From assembly GCF_014237455.1 (NCBI RefSeq), contig NZ_JABZFL010000015.1:4403-68402 (forward strand): DNA of 64,000 nucleotides, in the 5' to 3' direction. This document shows, in pieces, positions 1,218-47,937 of the stretch. Below the pieces are notes generated by a model. The model did not search any database. It was not told where the DNA came from and was given only the letters and a program-made list of their open reading frames with translations. The position numbers and the translations under genes were made by a program. The stretch comes from Desulfobacula sp. Lineage in GTDB: Bacteria > Desulfobacterota > Desulfobacteria > Desulfobacterales > Desulfobacteraceae. Positions within the stretch are counted from its first letter, which is position 1; each line of letters starts with the position of its first letter.

Positions 1218-4200
1218 ATGAAAGCGTTGGGCAAATGGTCTGTTGAACACAGGGTTTCTGTGAATCTCATAATGGTCTTTCTGATTGTGGCAGGGCTGTA
1301 CACGGTTTTAACCATGAAACGGGAAATGTTTCCTCAATTTTCCCTTGATATGATCAATATTTCCGTAACATACCCTGGCGCATCCCCAGAGGAAGTTGAA
1401 GAAGGGATTTGTATCAAGATCGAAGAGCAGCTCAAAAGCCTTGAAGATGTCAAAACAATGTACTCAACCGCCCTTGAAGGACACGGGTCGCTAACATTGG
1501 AACTTGCGGCCGGGACAGATATTAATGAAAAACTCGATGAAATAAGAACTGAGATAGACCTGATTGATACATTTCCCGACCAGGCAGAAGAGCCGGTTAT
1601 CATTGAGATCAAAAACAATGATCCGGCCATCTATCTGGCTATCTATGGTGATGTTGATGAAAAGGTGTTGCGGGATACTGCCGAGAGAATAAGGGATGAT
1701 CTTGTGGATACGGATGATATCTCCCTTGCAAGCCTCATTGGTGTCAGAGACTATGAAATTTCCATTGAAGTGTCTGAAGAAAATTTGAGACGATTTAATC
1801 TGTCTTTTGAACAGGTTGCAATAGCTGTAAAGACAGGAAGTCTTGATTTGCCGGGTGGTAAAATTAAGACAAAAGGCGGTGAATTTCTGGTCCGGACCAA
1901 GGGGAAGCTTTATACGGGCGAAGAGTTTGAACAGATTCCCGTGGTGACAAGGGAAGATGGAACCACCATTAAACTTGGGGATGTGGCAACGGTTATCGAC
2001 GGATTTGAAGATACGGATATCAAGGCAAGGTTTAATGGAAAACCGGCAGCGCTTGTTGTTGTCCGGCGTACGGACAGCCAGGATACCATTGCCATCTCAA
2101 AAACAGTCAAAGAGTATATTAAAACGCATAAGGATTCTCTTCCCAAAGGCATCACCCTGGGCTATTGGTTTGATATGGCGGAAATGGTCCAGGACAGGAT
2201 TGATCTTTTGCTGAAAAACGGTGTCCAGGGAATATTGCTGGTATTTATCGTATTGGCCCTGTTCCTTGATCTTGGACTTGCTTTCTGGGTGGCATCCGGG
2301 ATTCCCATTTCATTTATGGGCGCCTTTCTTGTCCTGAACTATTTCGGCGCATCCATTAACATGCTATCCCTGTTCGGGTTTATCATGACATTGGGTATTC
2401 TGGTGGATGATGCGATTATTGTCGGGGAAAATGTTTATACCCATTATAAAACAGGCAAATCCGCCAAAGAGGCGGTGATTGACAGTGTTGCCCAGATCGG
2501 GGCGCCGGTTGTGATGGCGGTTACCACGACCATTGTCGCATTCACACCTTTGATGCATATTGAAGGAATTATGGGAAAGTTCATCTTCATCATGCCCCAG
2601 ACAGTGATTTGTATTCTTGCCTTTTCTCTTATAGAGGCCTTTGTTATTCTACCGGCTCACCTTGATCATGCACTTACCCCGCCAAAAAAAAATAAAAGTC
2701 TGATTTACCGGATTTGTTTTTTCTGGCTGGAATGGTTGAAAAAAGATATTTTGGATGGCCATGGATGGGTTCGGGACAGAATTGAAAGCGTCTTAACGGT
2801 TGTTATCCGCTCGATTTATACCCCTGTTTTGAAATATTGTGTTAAGAATCGGTATTTTACGCTTGCCATGGGGTTTGGGATATTGATTGTCAGCATCGGG
2901 GTTTTGGCAGGCGGACATGTGCCGTTTGTGTTTTTTCCGAAAACCGACAGCAACTGGATTGTTTCAGAGATCATATATCCTTTGGGAACTCCCTTTGAAG
3001 CCACAGAAAAGACCATAAAACAAATTGAAAAAGGGGCTTTTGAGCTCAATGCGTTTTTCAGGGACAGGGTGGCGGGGGGTGATGATTTGATTGTTAATAA
3101 TTTTTCACAGGTGGGTGTTATTCCCAGAAGAGACTGGAAACCGGGTGTGTATGGCGGACATTGCGGGGAGGCTTGGATAGAGATCCAATCGGCGTCAAAA
3201 CGGCCCGATATTCCTGCGCCTGAAGTAACAGCAAAATGGCGGGAACTGACAGGGGATATTCTGGGTGCTGAACAGCTCACCTTTTCCATTATCGGCGGCG
3301 GGCCCGGTGGGAACCCCATAGAAATTCAACTGAAGGGCAAGGATCTTGATCAGCTTGAACTTGCCGCAGATGAGTTGAAACAGGAAATTGAAAAATACCC
3401 GGGAACCTTTGATATCACGGACACTTTTAGGCCGGGTAAAATGGAAAAACGGATTCACATCAAAAAAGGGGCTAAATCTTTAGGCATTACAATGGCAGAT
3501 ATTGCCACACAGATCCGGCAGGCCTATTATGGAGATGAAGCTTTGAAGATCCAGAGAGGCAAAGATGATATCAAAGTAATGGTACGATATTCTCAAAAAG
3601 AGAGGGAATCCGAAGCCAGTATTGATGCGTTAAGGATCAGAACCCGAGACGGAAGGCAGGTGCCTTTGAACCAGGTGGCTGATATTGAAATGAAAAGAGG
3701 GTATTCAACCATTCAGCGGGTAGACCGGAAAAGGATCATTACCGTCATTTCCGATATTAATGAAGATATTGCCAATGCCCGGGAAATCGTTGAAGATTTA
3801 AAAAAGAATTACCTTGATACCCTTGTTAATCGATTCCCAGGGGTGACCTATGACCTGGAAGGCCAGGCCAAAAGAACTGAAGAATCCATTGATAGCCTTA
3901 AGTTAGGATTTTCTCTTGCAGGAATGATTATATTTTTGCTCCTGGCCAGCCAGTTTAGATCCTATATCCAGCCGGTCATCATCATGACCGCCATTCCCTT
4001 TGGACTCATCGGCGCGATTGCCGGGCACTATTTTATGAACCTTGATATCACTATGATCAGTATATTCGGAATTGTTGCCCTGTCCGGAATTGTAGTAAAT
4101 GACGCTTTGATTTTAATCGATTTTATCAATTCAAAGGTCAGGAAAGGCATTCCGGTTTTTGATGCTGTCATTGAAGCAGGGCAGAACAGGTTCAGGCCGG

Positions 4201-44179: not shown

Positions 44180-44608
44180 TTGTTTAAAAAAAAGGTTTTA
44201 CGAATGGAAACAGAAGATGGCAGAAGAATTATTAGTGGTTTTTACTCCACCAAAGAAGAAAGAAAAGCTTGCTTAAGTTTGGAGCAATGGAGTAAATGGA
44301 AGCAATTGGAAAAAACCATTTCTGTACGAGATACAGGAACCAAGGCAATTGTGCACGGGCGCAATCGGAACCAACATAGTATAGTTGGAACACCCGGAGA
44401 GATAAATCCTTGGGGACATTCTGAAGGAACGATTGGCAATACCATTGATTATTGTGTTCAGCTTGGTATTTTTACAAAAGATCAAATAAAAATTCTTGCT
44501 GGAACAAAAATGAATAAAATCAATTCACATCTTCGCAGTATGGAAAAAAAAGGTGAGTATGTGGCAATTAAAAATTTTGATGGAATTATATCTTTTAAAA
44601 ATAAGTAA
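44180..44608 (+). CDS. Hypothetical protein, probable first cassette ORF (ends at attC1)
   Basis: AT-rich ORF whose stop abuts an attC-like hairpin; start uncertain (TTG 44180 or ATG 44204). Confidence 0.5.
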   Translation: MFKKKVLRMETEDGRRIISGFYSTKEERKACLSLEQWSKWKQLEKTISVRDTGTKAIVHGRNRNQHSIVGTPGEINPWGHSEGTIGNTIDYCVQLGIFTKDQIKILAGTKMNKINSHLRSMEKKGEYVAIKNFDGIISFKNK

Positions 44609-44681
44609 ACACAGAAGGCAAATTAACTCGGATGCAAATTCCGTTGCGCTCCATTTGCACCGGTTATTTGCAGCGTTAGCT
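44605..44681 (+). repeat. attC-like site 1 (R'' degenerate)
   Basis: GCAAAT[T]AAC[T]CGG[A]TGCAAAT ... ATTTGCACCGGTTATTTGC imperfect palindrome with three unpaired bases, ending in core GTTAGCT (44675-44681). Confidence 0.75.
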
Positions 44682-44718
44682 TGTCCAGTTCTCAGCTGGA
44701 TAAAAGGAGAAAGAACAA

Positions 44719-45150
44719 ATGGATAGTTTTGGTATAATTTTAATTGTTGCTGTTATTATTGGTATCATTCCTGCCTTTATTGCATCAAGTAAAGGGAGAG
44801 ATTTTGTTCTTTGGTGGATTTATGGCACATCATTGTTTGTCTTTGCTATGATTCATGCAATTGTATTAAAACCAAACGAAGAACAACTAATTAGAGAAGG
44901 AAAGAAACATTGTCCCTATTGTGATGAATTGATAAAGCCCAAAGCAACTGTATGTCGATACTGTAGCAGAGAGCTACCATCAGATCAGGAAGAATTGCCA
45001 GTATCAACTAAAGAAACAAATAAAGAAACAAAATTTTGTCATAATTGTTCAAATAATAGATACCATGGCTTTTCGGGGTATAAATGTAAATTAACTAAAA
45101 ACAAAACAGATACTTTTGAAACTTGTGACAATTGGAGTCAAAAAAGTTGA
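44719..45150 (+). CDS. Membrane protein with zinc-ribbon and second Cys cluster (cassette gene)
   Basis: Two TM helices, CPYC-x10-CRYC, then CHNC...C...C; RBS AAGGAG. Confidence 0.75.
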   Translation: MDSFGIILIVAVIIGIIPAFIASSKGRDFVLWWIYGTSLFVFAMIHAIVLKPNEEQLIREGKKHCPYCDELIKPKATVCRYCSRELPSDQEELPVSTKETNKETKFCHNCSNNRYHGFSGYKCKLTKNKTDTFETCDNWSQKS

Positions 45151-45908
45151 ATGAATTAATACGGGGATTTTTTTATCACTACACTTCAATCGAAAAACTT
45201 ACATTAATATTAAACAGTCAAAATATTCGATTCACCAGAGCTGATTTAGTTAATGATTTAGAGGAAATAAATATTATCGATAAACCTGAGATAAAAAAAT
45301 CTGCCTTTATTTCATGCTGGACAAGCCAAAATAATGAATCAATACCGATGTGGAATTTATATGGTGGTATATCAAAAGGAGTTAGAATAAAGCTGAGATA
45401 TCCGATTTTTGAAGGTGCATCTGTTGCATACAATGTTGAGAATCACCACTGCAACATTATGAATTTAAAAAATATCAGCAATTTTATAAAAAGAGATGGG
45501 GATCATGAATGGGTAAAGTATCTATTCGGACCAATTAAAGTAAATTATGCAAAAAATGTTGCTGTTTATGTAATAGGAAATAATAATTCTTTAATTGTAG
45601 AAAAAATTGGAACTCAAAAACTAGAACATTGGAAATTCGAAAATGAATCCCGTTTTTTAGCTCTGGCAAATCATGAATGGAATAGCAGTACAAAACAATT
45701 TGAACTTAAGCAGGAACCATATTATTCAAAGACTAAAGATAACTATTTTGATATCAGAATAGACAAAAATATATTCAATAAAATGGAAGTTACTCTTGGC
45801 CCAAGTTGTCAATATCCTGAGCAAATTATTGTTGAAAGTCTAATTGAAAAATTTACAACAAATGGAAAAGTGAAACTAAGCGAACTTAAAGAAAAAATTA
45901 GATTATAA
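45132..45908 (+). CDS. DUF2971-like protein (cassette gene)
   Basis: 'YHYTS...L', 'NDLEE', 'SCWT....ESIPMWNLYG...GVRI', 'KLEHWKFENESR'; start uncertain (TTG 45132 or 45147, coupled to the upstream stop). Confidence 0.65.
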   Translation: MESKKLNELIRGFFYHYTSIEKLTLILNSQNIRFTRADLVNDLEEINIIDKPEIKKSAFISCWTSQNNESIPMWNLYGGISKGVRIKLRYPIFEGASVAYNVENHHCNIMNLKNISNFIKRDGDHEWVKYLFGPIKVNYAKNVAVYVIGNNNSLIVEKIGTQKLEHWKFENESRFLALANHEWNSSTKQFELKQEPYYSKTKDNYFDIRIDKNIFNKMEVTLGPSCQYPEQIIVESLIEKFTTNGKVKLSELKEKIRL

Positions 45909-45915
45909 AAAGCTA

Positions 45916-47881
45916 ATCGGGTAGCCGGGGGTTTTAATCCCCCAGCCCCCACAACACCCTGCATGCGGGTCCGCACAGGGCGTTTCATCAAGATTACCGG
46001 GCTGTGGCCGGGTAATGTATTTTCACCCACTGTTCTTTGACAGATATTAACCCTTGTTCAGATAGCCATTTGTTTGTCATACCGGCCTGTGTTGCCATGG
46101 TTCTGGACAGATGCCATGGCCCTCTTCGGCTGAGGGATGTCATGATTGCCTCTCTTTTGTAGGTGCCTAATTTGAGAAGATTTCGGACTTTGGTACGGGT
46201 ATACCGCCATTGTTTCCAGTAGCACATCCGTGTCCGGCGGCGAAGCCATTCGTCTATTCCCGGAATTGGTCGGTAGTATTCCGATATCCCGTAATAGTTC
46301 ATCCAACCCCGGATATATTCCGCTAACTTCTTGTATCGGTGCTCCATAGAGACAAACCAGCTCCTTCCGGTAAACAGGCGTAACCGCCGCTTAAATTCCA
46401 GAAAGGATTTATCACTCCATCTGATTTTGCCATTTACAAATACAAAACCAAGAAAACCGCATTCTTCCACTGGTGCCACCTTGCTCTTCTTCTCGTTGAC
46501 TTTGAGTTGAAGCTTTAGCTCAAGGAACCGACGTATACTTGCCATCACCCGTTTGCCGGCACTCAGGCTTTTCACCATAATGATGAAATCATCTGCATAC
46601 CGGACAAAATGGTGGCCTCGTTTTTCCAGTTCCTTGTCAAGGTCATCAAGAAGGATATTAGCGAGCAAAGGTGAAAGTGGGCCTCCCTGGGGAACACCCG
46701 TAGGAGTTGCCTGAAGGCGGCCTTTGACCACAACACCGGCCCTGAGATATTTACCGATAAGCTTCAGTACTCGCTTATCTTGTATCTGGCGGGATACTCT
46801 ATTCATCAAGACATCGTGATTAACTTTATCGAAAAATTTCGACAAATCAGTATCAACGGCCACTTTGTAGCCCTGCCCTATGAATTGTTTTACCTGCCGG
46901 ACACCATCATGGGCCGATCTGCCAGGCCTGAAACCGCAACTTGATTCCGAAAACAAGGGATCAAATATTAACCCCATAACCTGGGCAATGGCTTGTTGGA
47001 TCGTTCTATCCAGCACGGTTGGGATACCCAGGGGACGTTTACTTCCATCCGGTTTTGGTATTTCAACCCTTAGAACAGGAGAAGGGATATATGTCCCTTC
47101 AAAAAGGTCTGAACGTATCTTAGGCCATAACTCACGAAAGGCGTCCGGAAATTGCTCAACGGTTACACCGTCGATTCCAGGGGCACCCTTGTTGGCCCGC
47201 ACCTGTTTCCAGGCACGACGTATATTCTCTGCCGAAAGAATACGTTCCAGTAGATGATTCTTTGAAAAAGGTACTTCCACAGCGCGCTTGTAAATTACTC
47301 CTCCATTCGGATTCACGGTATATACAAAGCTCATGGATACCTCCTTTTCGTTTGATGTTCTGTCCTTCACCCTGTCCGGGGCATTACTCCCGGCGTTTGG
47401 CTACTATGACGTCTGCTGACTTCTGCTTCATCACTAATCAGGTTACCCTGACCAGCGCAATGAAACTTCTTTTGCAGGTGTTGCCCATTGTTCGTGTCTC
47501 ATCACCGTCGGCAACAGCCGGTGATGCCTGGACCTTGGTTTCCCGGTATGGTCCGAGCCGGGAGTTGTTGCAAAAGATGCTCAATGCATGCAAGGCAGAT
47601 CTCCCCGGATAAGAGCGTGAACTGTCACTACACAACCGCAGCATTTACCCTGTCTCTTGAATCCTGGGCTTTGTCATGTTGTGCTGACTTACCCGGAGAC
47701 CAGGCCTTATATGCTGTTTCTGTTCGTCGGCTCATAGTTTTGCACTCCAACTTCCTTCGGACGGTTCCTCACAGTTCCGCCCTTGTTTTCGGCTAATACT
47801 TGTGTTAACAAAAACATATGCTAACAGGACTCACGTATAGGGGACTTGCACCCCATAAGTTCACGCCCATGCCGGGCGTAC
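45916..47881 (-). mobile_element. Group II intron, class IIC-attC, inserted in the bottom strand of attC2
   Basis: 5' end GTACGCCCGGCATGGGCG (G at 47881); domain V with CGC triad at 45953-45984; domain VI ending ACCCGAT at 45916; flanks rejoin into an attC. Confidence 0.9.
45994..47370 (-). CDS. ltrA: Group II intron reverse transcriptase/maturase (no endonuclease domain)
   Basis: RT0 'NKGAPGIDG', 'RPLGIPTVLDR', 'GVPQGGPLSPLLANI', 'YADD', X domain 'GWMNYY'. Confidence 0.95.
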   Translation of the reverse strand: MKDRTSNEKEVSMSFVYTVNPNGGVIYKRAVEVPFSKNHLLERILSAENIRRAWKQVRANKGAPGIDGVTVEQFPDAFRELWPKIRSDLFEGTYIPSPVLRVEIPKPDGSKRPLGIPTVLDRTIQQAIAQVMGLIFDPLFSESSCGFRPGRSAHDGVRQVKQFIGQGYKVAVDTDLSKFFDKVNHDVLMNRVSRQIQDKRVLKLIGKYLRAGVVVKGRLQATPTGVPQGGPLSPLLANILLDDLDKELEKRGHHFVRYADDFIIMVKSLSAGKRVMASIRRFLELKLQLKVNEKKSKVAPVEECGFLGFVFVNGKIRWSDKSFLEFKRRLRLFTGRSWFVSMEHRYKKLAEYIRGWMNYYGISEYYRPIPGIDEWLRRRTRMCYWKQWRYTRTKVRNLLKLGTYKREAIMTSLSRRGPWHLSRTMATQAGMTNKWLSEQGLISVKEQWVKIHYPATAR

Positions 47882-47937
47882 GCCAACTGTTCCACTGGAC
47901 CCGCAAACAGCGCGGGCCAGTGAACGCCACGTTAGAA
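47882..47937 (+). repeat. attC site 2, right part (left part AGCTA at 45911-45915)
   Basis: GTTC[C]ACTGG[A]CCCGC / GCGGGCCAGTGAAC stem gives extrahelical G and T on the bottom strand; core GTTAGAA at 47931-47937. Confidence 0.85.

Follow-up and report, generated by a model that had tools for sequence, protein, structure and literature searches.

A cassette carrying two overlapping AT-rich open reading frames (ORFs), ORF1 (positions 44719-45150, + strand) and ORF2 (45147-45908, + strand), was analysed in a 64,000-nt stretch of DNA from Desulfobacula sp. (assembly GCF_014237455.1, contig NZ_JABZFL010000015.1, positions 4,403 to 68,402; hereafter, the window). Our sequence comparisons indicate that it is probably a fused integron cassette rather than a new two-gene system, and we favour, with a probability of about 0.55, the reading in which its second gene, a member of the DUF2971 family, is a stand-alone defence candidate. 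The two genes would be of separate origin and would have been fused with no foldable attC site left between them, in what appears to be a small, integrase-less cassette cluster resembling a cluster of attC sites lacking integron-integrases (CALIN), within a Desulfobotulus-like chromosome. ORF2 would be the functional core, a lone, predicted DarT-like ADP-ribosyltransferase (ART) of the PDC-S31/Aristaios kind; by analogy with its relatives, phage infection would trigger it to ADP-ribosylate a target, either nucleic acid or protein, at the expense of NAD+, with Glu167 of the E165-x-E167 motif as the putative catalytic residue, and this modification would halt phage replication or host growth (abortive infection). 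ORF1 would provide the ribosome-binding site and the TTGA coupling for the weak TTG start of ORF2, besides having a membrane function of its own, and would most likely not be a sensor or antitoxin required by ORF2.

Each of the two genes otherwise occurs separately. The initial annotation of the cassette had proposed a membrane sensor paired with an effector, and the co-occurrence that such a pair implies failed in both directions. We surveyed the neighbourhoods of ORF2 relatives in 80 genome loci (26-34% identity, many phyla) and 5 metagenome loci (42-63% identity), and neither tblastn nor a hidden Markov model (HMM) built from ORF1 relatives (E<=10) detected an ORF1-like frame in any of the 85. 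In 36 of them the relative stood alone, lacking any co-oriented neighbour in the 80 nt before it, and the upstream neighbours were otherwise heterogeneous, with no partner recurring in more than 5 of the 85. Two close homologues are single-gene cassettes: one with 60% identity (locus L097), bounded by attC sites on both sides and placed 1.9 kb from an IntI gene (TIGR02249, 466 bits), and one with 65% identity (L198), preceded at 45 nt by an R'-like core and followed by an attC of its own. That ORF2-type genes occur autonomously is shown by these single-gene cassettes together with the absence of ORF1 from all 85 loci. Further close homologues follow a type III restriction-modification (R-M) pair (L095 and L096) or lie near Mrr and AbiJ-like genes (L099). 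The L097 sequence contains a complete metagenomic integron (384-2103), with a lexA-like gene adjoining intI and then a minimum of five short cassettes, of which the final one is broken by an IS4-type transposase; the cassette preceding the ORF2 homologue (3498-3817) encodes an unrelated soluble double zinc-ribbon protein.

Conversely, the core of ORF1 (its two transmembrane helices and first zinc ribbon) has at least 466 relatives in metagenomes, and among the best 80 loci (L100-L179) no adjacent DUF2971 gene was found; other neighbours recur instead. In 20 of the 80, a gene for a conserved 105-aa membrane or secreted protein lies upstream of the ORF1-like gene and overlaps it, and in 8 the ORF1-like gene is inserted, as a moron would be, between two phage genes, those for minor tail protein T and the tape-measure protein. 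The sequence comparison thus places ORF1 in a widespread family of zinc-ribbon proteins with two transmembrane helices, whose other members are phage morons or are otherwise neighboured. The family consists of very widespread small proteins, the membrane part of which has no Pfam model. ORF1 itself encodes 143 aa, with helices predicted at residues 3-22 and 27-50, a first ribbon C-terminal to them (C65-P-Y-C68-x10-C79-R-Y-C82) and a second, lineage-specific cluster of four cysteines (C107xxC110-x12-C123-x12-C136). The Pfam models Zn_ribbon_3, DZR and related ones match the first ribbon below threshold, NCBIfam has no model matching ORF1, ORF2 or the orphan ORF upstream of them, and the predicted structure of ORF1 is poor (predicted local distance difference test, pLDDT, of 57), its credible part being the two transmembrane helices alone.

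Closer homologues of ORF1, some at 82-90% identity and others at 41-60%, allowed the history of the pair to be followed. Both genes are kept in three loci (L004-L006), at 82% and 90% amino-acid identity. In Desulfobotulus alkaliphilus (L001), a 90%-identical ORF1 shares the left junction of the window copy, and just past its stop codon (AAGTTAA) the sequence runs into a 5'-truncated phd and parE; these last genes (L001 6421-6857, from VLLC01000006.1) comprise a phd/yefM remnant of 53 aa and an intact parE/yoeB-like toxin gene, apparently a toxin with a crippled antitoxin. In L197, an intact 87%-identical ORF1 precedes a remnant of about 40 codons of ORF2. A homologue with 41% identity (L003) is also followed by a protein gene, which we rejected as a counterpart of ORF2, being unrelated to it. 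The pair is therefore confined to a narrow lineage, the window and L004-L006, with a decayed copy in L197, and, judged by the refuting condition set in the initial annotation (no co-occurrence in other genomes), its status as a conserved system is close to refuted. Given the intact ORF1 copies that persist where ORF2 is deleted or truncated, ORF1 likewise occurs autonomously. The pairwise ratio of nonsynonymous to synonymous substitution rates (dN/dS) of ORF1 was 0.087 against the D. alkaliphilus copy and 0.39 against the metagenome contig L004, values by which ORF1 is judged to be under purifying selection; ORF2 would have been lost twice since, with ORF1 staying under selection.

The frame of ORF2 was first listed from a TTG at 45132, and the start was moved to the TTG at 45147 following an alignment of 40 homologues and the database gene call, which gives a protein of 253 aa. 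This TTG overlaps the ORF1 stop (TGA, 45148-45150) as TTGA, and a ribosome-binding site, GGAG (45134-45137, + strand), lies within the ORF1 coding sequence 9 nt 5' of the start; because of both features, translational coupling from ORF1 to ORF2 is plausible. L004 retains this GGAG, and D. alkaliphilus, which lacks ORF2, has it mutated to GGAT. ORF1 has its own ribosome-binding site, read as AAGGAG (44704-44709, + strand) 9 nt 5' of the ATG and also kept in L001 and L004.

The DUF2971-like nature of ORF2 proposed in the initial annotation was supported at the family level. A database search with ORF2 gave 48 matches; all 40 of the aligned relatives match the DUF2971 profile PF11185 (best E 1.4e-8), and several carry a precomputed PF11185 annotation. 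By these profile matches of its relatives, ORF2 is assigned to DUF2971. In the family alignment, the near-invariant columns are YHYT, ND..E, SCWT, PMW..Y, GVRI and W.FE.E.R; H11, Y12 and T13 are near-invariant, Y72, E167 and R169 are invariant, and E165 alternates with Q; H11/Y12, Y72 and E165-x-E167 are the predicted catalytic candidates. The pairwise dN/dS of ORF2 against L004 (0.27) indicates that this gene too is under purifying selection. Published work (PMC12522546) places DUF2971 in the H-Y-E clade of ARTs, beside DarT, AbiGi and Tox-ART-HYD1, and describes an ExE motif and a conserved Tyr in it; ORF2 carries the motif set given there, namely a variable His, a strict Tyr and ExE. Matches to Tox-ART-HYD1 were also obtained for 6 of the 40 relatives, and to PARP for one.

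The ART-like fold suggested in the initial annotation is thus in line with the published view of the family, and the structural model agrees, its PDB matches being weak. With the family alignment as input, AlphaFold2 gave a model of ORF2 with a pLDDT of 91.2 and a predicted template modelling score (pTM) of 0.88, in which the invariant E167 starts a strand and SCWT ends another, followed by the PMW..Y helix; in the model, this placing of E167 and SCWT is the usual ART layout. The top three Foldseek matches in the PDB are structures of Thermus DarT (7OMV, 7OMW and 7OMX). Against a library of viral structures, the model matched uncharacterised phage proteins at E of about 1e-3, along with faint PARP-, Tpt1- and Arr-like matches. 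ORF2 shares with DarT (PF14487) the N-terminal strand-helix motif 'YH.T...L..IL' and a glutamate starting the catalytic strand, and differs from it in having large inserts between the core strands; its neighbours differ too, since ORF2 lies between the gene of a membrane protein with a zinc ribbon and an intron instead of beside the DarG macrodomain of DarTG. We rejected ORF2 as a member of the DarT family itself, as neither it nor its relatives match PF14487, no DarG macrodomain neighbour is present, and a profile comparison of the two families gave a probability of 12%. ORF2 is at best a distant relative of DarT in fold. A PDB sequence search with the family profile returned a fibrinogen match alone, which was discarded as spurious.

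Among known and candidate defence systems, the closest to ORF2 is of the DUF2971 type. The initial annotation had expected no match in PADLOC, and this expectation proved wrong: ORF2 matches three PDC-S31 models (E 5.7e-8, 6.2e-8 and 8.7e-7), with 71% of PDLC04993 covered, and 38 of its 40 relatives match them as well. PDC-S31 is a single-gene phage defence candidate defined by DUF2971-type HMMs (PDLC04990-04994), to which ORF2 was compared by HMM match; it is itself a prediction only, and a literature search for 'PDC-S31' returned nothing. ORF2 relatives resemble it in being single genes, several of them in defence-type contexts. The scores of ORF2 are modest, at about 30 bits, for which reason we regard the ORF2 clade as a divergent branch of PDC-S31, and ORF2 differs further in being coupled to an upstream membrane protein and carried in an integron cassette. 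Aristaios, a 316-aa protein encoded by the Lactococcus plasmid pUCCL641_199, has been tested as a single-gene DUF2971 defence against phage and shows abortive infection (Grafakou et al. 2024, PMC11381338). Likened to ORF2 by domain family, it shares the DUF2971 domain, the predicted ART fold and the condition of a single gene on mobile DNA, whereas ORF2 is shorter (253 aa), belongs to a sulfate-reducer-like deltaproteobacterium and is known from its sequence. A lactococcal plasmid match (260 aa, 24% identity) was considered as Aristaios and rejected, as it corresponds to a different DUF2971 gene.

Several observations weigh against ORF2 acting alone as an ART of this kind. The match of ORF2 itself to PF11185, which covers profile positions 1-89 of 89, reaches 16.6 bits (E 0.021), under the gathering cut-off of 22 bits; the structural matches to DarT are weak (E 0.035-0.12, probability 0.44-0.60, TM 0.31-0.41), and hhalign of the ORF2 family with a 12-sequence DarT profile built from genomes gave its 12% probability over 27 columns, an overlap confined to the N-terminal 'YHxT...L..IL' motif. 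No sigma-70-like promoter was found upstream of the cassette. In the two diverged lineages that keep both genes (the window and L004-L006; synonymous divergence, dS, of 0.17-0.25), the stop/start overlap is retained with both genes under purifying selection, and the remnant in L197 suggests that the pair is probably ancestral to the close ORF1 subfamily; a functional link between the two genes may thus exist in the window/L004-L006 lineage. In L106 and L109, 0.7 kb separates an ORF1-like gene from a canonical DUF2971 gene, with another gene between them; in L106 (1335-3273) the row consists of an 88-aa ORF1-like gene, a gene for a 137-aa secreted repeat protein and one for a 319-aa DUF2971 protein (PF11185, 37 bits), and this is the sole other co-localisation of the two families found. 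In addition, unrelated small zinc-ribbon ORFs lie just upstream of the DUF2971 genes in L097 and L055, which could be chance, zinc ribbons being common in cassettes, or a weak association.

Some of these observations would fit a two-gene system, in which ORF1 would be a membrane zinc-ribbon sensor, regulator or antitoxin-like partner that holds the ART inactive or localised until infection. The order of the genes, with the small protein first, the 2-nt stop/start overlap and the ribosome-binding site inside ORF1 recall antitoxin-toxin operons; L004-L006 conserve the pair and a comparable neighbourhood exists in L106/L109; and two-gene integron defence cassettes with a membrane component are known, such as Sucellos (bioRxiv 10.1101/2024.07.02.601686). 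We nevertheless consider this explanation unlikely, as the relatives of ORF2 across 26-65% identity, two of them single-gene cassettes, lack an ORF1-like neighbour, ORF1 remains intact and selected after ORF2 loss, the wider ORF1 family has other neighbours, and Aristaios acts as a single gene. A narrower version, a lineage-specific recruitment in which ORF1 became a membrane sensor or brake, and its loss of translation or integrity on infection frees the predicted ART, seems to us somewhat less probable still. The anti-phage candidacy put forward in the initial annotation is reasonable for ORF2, given Aristaios and the R-M, Mrr and AbiJ neighbours of its homologues, and is not supported for the pair as a two-gene system.

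The anatomy of the cassette described in the initial annotation, with two AT-rich ORFs in one cassette, the helices and Cys clusters of ORF1 and the motifs of ORF2, was borne out. The GC content is 31-35% across both ORFs and about 43% in the flanks. The left boundary is the upstream attC (44612-44684, + strand), with R'' at about 44620-44627 (AAATTAAC) and R' GTTAGCT at 44675-44681; both of its strands fold into a hairpin (-14.1 kcal/mol), and the site ends in GTTAGC and closes the preceding cassette at its 3' end. That cassette contains an orphan ORF (44204-44608, 134 aa) with no Pfam, NCBIfam or PADLOC match and, among the loci examined, no homologue. Between the window and D. alkaliphilus, the alignment begins only at GCGTTAGCTTG, a differing hairpin preceding it in each; such an onset of homology, exactly at the R' GTTAGC, typifies a G|TT cassette junction. 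In L004 (1-262), the upstream attC of the ORF1 homologue gives way, where the R' core would be (...CCCGGT|CTTGCCC), to the end of a different element, which includes a tandem 16-nt repeat (GTCCCCCTGCGCACG twice), hairpins and the C-terminus of a helix-turn-helix-containing ORF. Overall, a G|TTRRRY junction was found upstream of the cassette and a foldable attC downstream, and the attC sites of sister cassettes are intact.

Between the two genes, by contrast with these flanking hairpins, the junction region (45084-45156) forms no hairpin and folds at -3.9/-3.6 kcal/mol, and so ORF1 and ORF2 make up one cassette today. A GTTRRRY-like core lies exactly at the ORF1/ORF2 junction (GTTGAAT in the window, GTTAACT in L197 and GTTAAAT in L001), which would fit an origin in which two cassettes fused and the attC stem was lost. 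It might also be read as two cassettes that are still separate, with a cryptic attC in the 3' end of ORF1 made up of an R''-like AAATTAAC (45088-45095) and an R'-like GTTGAAT (45146-45152); besides the core itself, D. alkaliphilus diverges 0-2 nt past it, and the R'' of the upstream attC shares a 14-nt repeat (D13) with the ORF1 3' region. This possibility appears very unlikely to us, since the 73-nt region has no R-box/L-box stem, true attCs at this locus fold at -14 to -15 kcal/mol, and the candidate region is coding and conserved as protein; a canonical attC within the ORF1 3' end is ruled out by the fold of -3.9 kcal/mol. The fused cassette of the preferred reading shares with CALIN or sedentary-integron cassettes the short AT-rich ORFs, the attC hairpins, the G|TTRRRY junctions and an IntI located elsewhere in the genome, and differs from them in holding two genes with the intervening attC missing, and in a downstream attC that is split by a group II intron.

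This intact intron (45915-47881, - strand, ends within about 1-3 nt) is antisense to the cassette genes and lies inside the attC; it was identified with Rfam models RF02001, RF01998 and RF00029, and its reverse transcriptase (RT)/maturase ORF (45994-47370) with Pfam RVT_1 and GIIM. The severed left stub of the attC, AAAGCTA (45909-45915, + strand), directly follows ORF2 and abuts the 3' end of the intron, and AAAGCTAAC at the same position in L004 and L198 is the R'' of an intact attC. In the rest of the site (47882-47937, + strand), which is the right boundary of the cassette, R'' GCCAAC is followed by a stem that carries a bulged base and by R' GTTAGAA (47931-47937); when rejoined across the intron, the attC folds at -15.1/-14.6 kcal/mol with the bulged base. 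The intron 3' end was set by a 93%-identical 140-nt fragment of the same genome (contig C96, 99041-99180), located some 2.6 kb away from intI on that contig, and an RT stretch 77.5% identical to the window intron is present on contig C107. The cassettes of the window and L004, at 82-90% protein identity, have AAAAAGCTA in common after the ORF2 stop, followed by wholly different attC hairpins. The attC on the right side of the intron may accordingly stem from a different cassette, brought in perhaps by recombination between intron copies.

The cluster is CALIN-like and not a complete integron, because the true IntI genes of the genome (TIGR02249, 461 and 345 bits) lie on other contigs (C96 and C5), and no integron integrase was found on the contig of the cluster (C48). 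In two congeners, similarity to the window breaks off where the upstream CBS gene stops, which identifies the cluster as strain-specific cargo; a clean empty site was not found, the CBS and racemase genes being non-adjacent in relatives. As judged from gene orientation, expression may occur by read-through from the co-oriented DUF1538-PII-CBS operon.

These features also bear on whether ORF2 serves defence at all. It could instead have a role in host regulation or in stabilising the array (of the addiction type), or be silent, decaying cargo, as might be suggested by the missing sigma-70-like promoter, the attC broken by the intron, the absence of a nearby integrase and the loss or truncation of ORF2 in two sister lineages; effector or stress roles have likewise been proposed for DUF2971 (PMC12522546), and PDC-S31 is a candidate and not a validated system. 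We regard such a role as possible but rather doubtful: the dN/dS of 0.27 indicates selection on ORF2, homologues occur in defence-type neighbourhoods, one DUF2971 member, Aristaios, has a validated abortive-infection phenotype, and the co-oriented upstream operon could supply read-through transcription.

The DUF2971/PDC-S31 family and the CALIN vehicle were already known, and what is new is ORF2 as a further member. As such, it would add to the cases in which a predicted DUF2971 ART of the PDC-S31/Aristaios type travels in an integron cassette, in keeping with the view of integron arrays and CALINs as banks of compact anti-phage genes. The storage of compact defence genes has been described in integron arrays, and the two-gene cassettes among them include some with a single required gene, such as Toutatis (bioRxiv 10.1101/2024.07.02.601686). 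The sister loci suggest that two cassettes can fuse into an operon-like unit and then decay independently, a caution against taking every two-gene cassette as a system. If ORF1 had in fact been recruited, the pair would represent a two-component variant of Aristaios/PDC-S31 born by cassette fusion in a Desulfobotulus-type lineage, and the zinc-ribbon ORFs upstream of other DUF2971 cassettes would be analogous partners. Finally, with its compact size of 253 aa and the high confidence of its predicted fold, ORF2 is possibly a convenient protein for finding the target of DUF2971.

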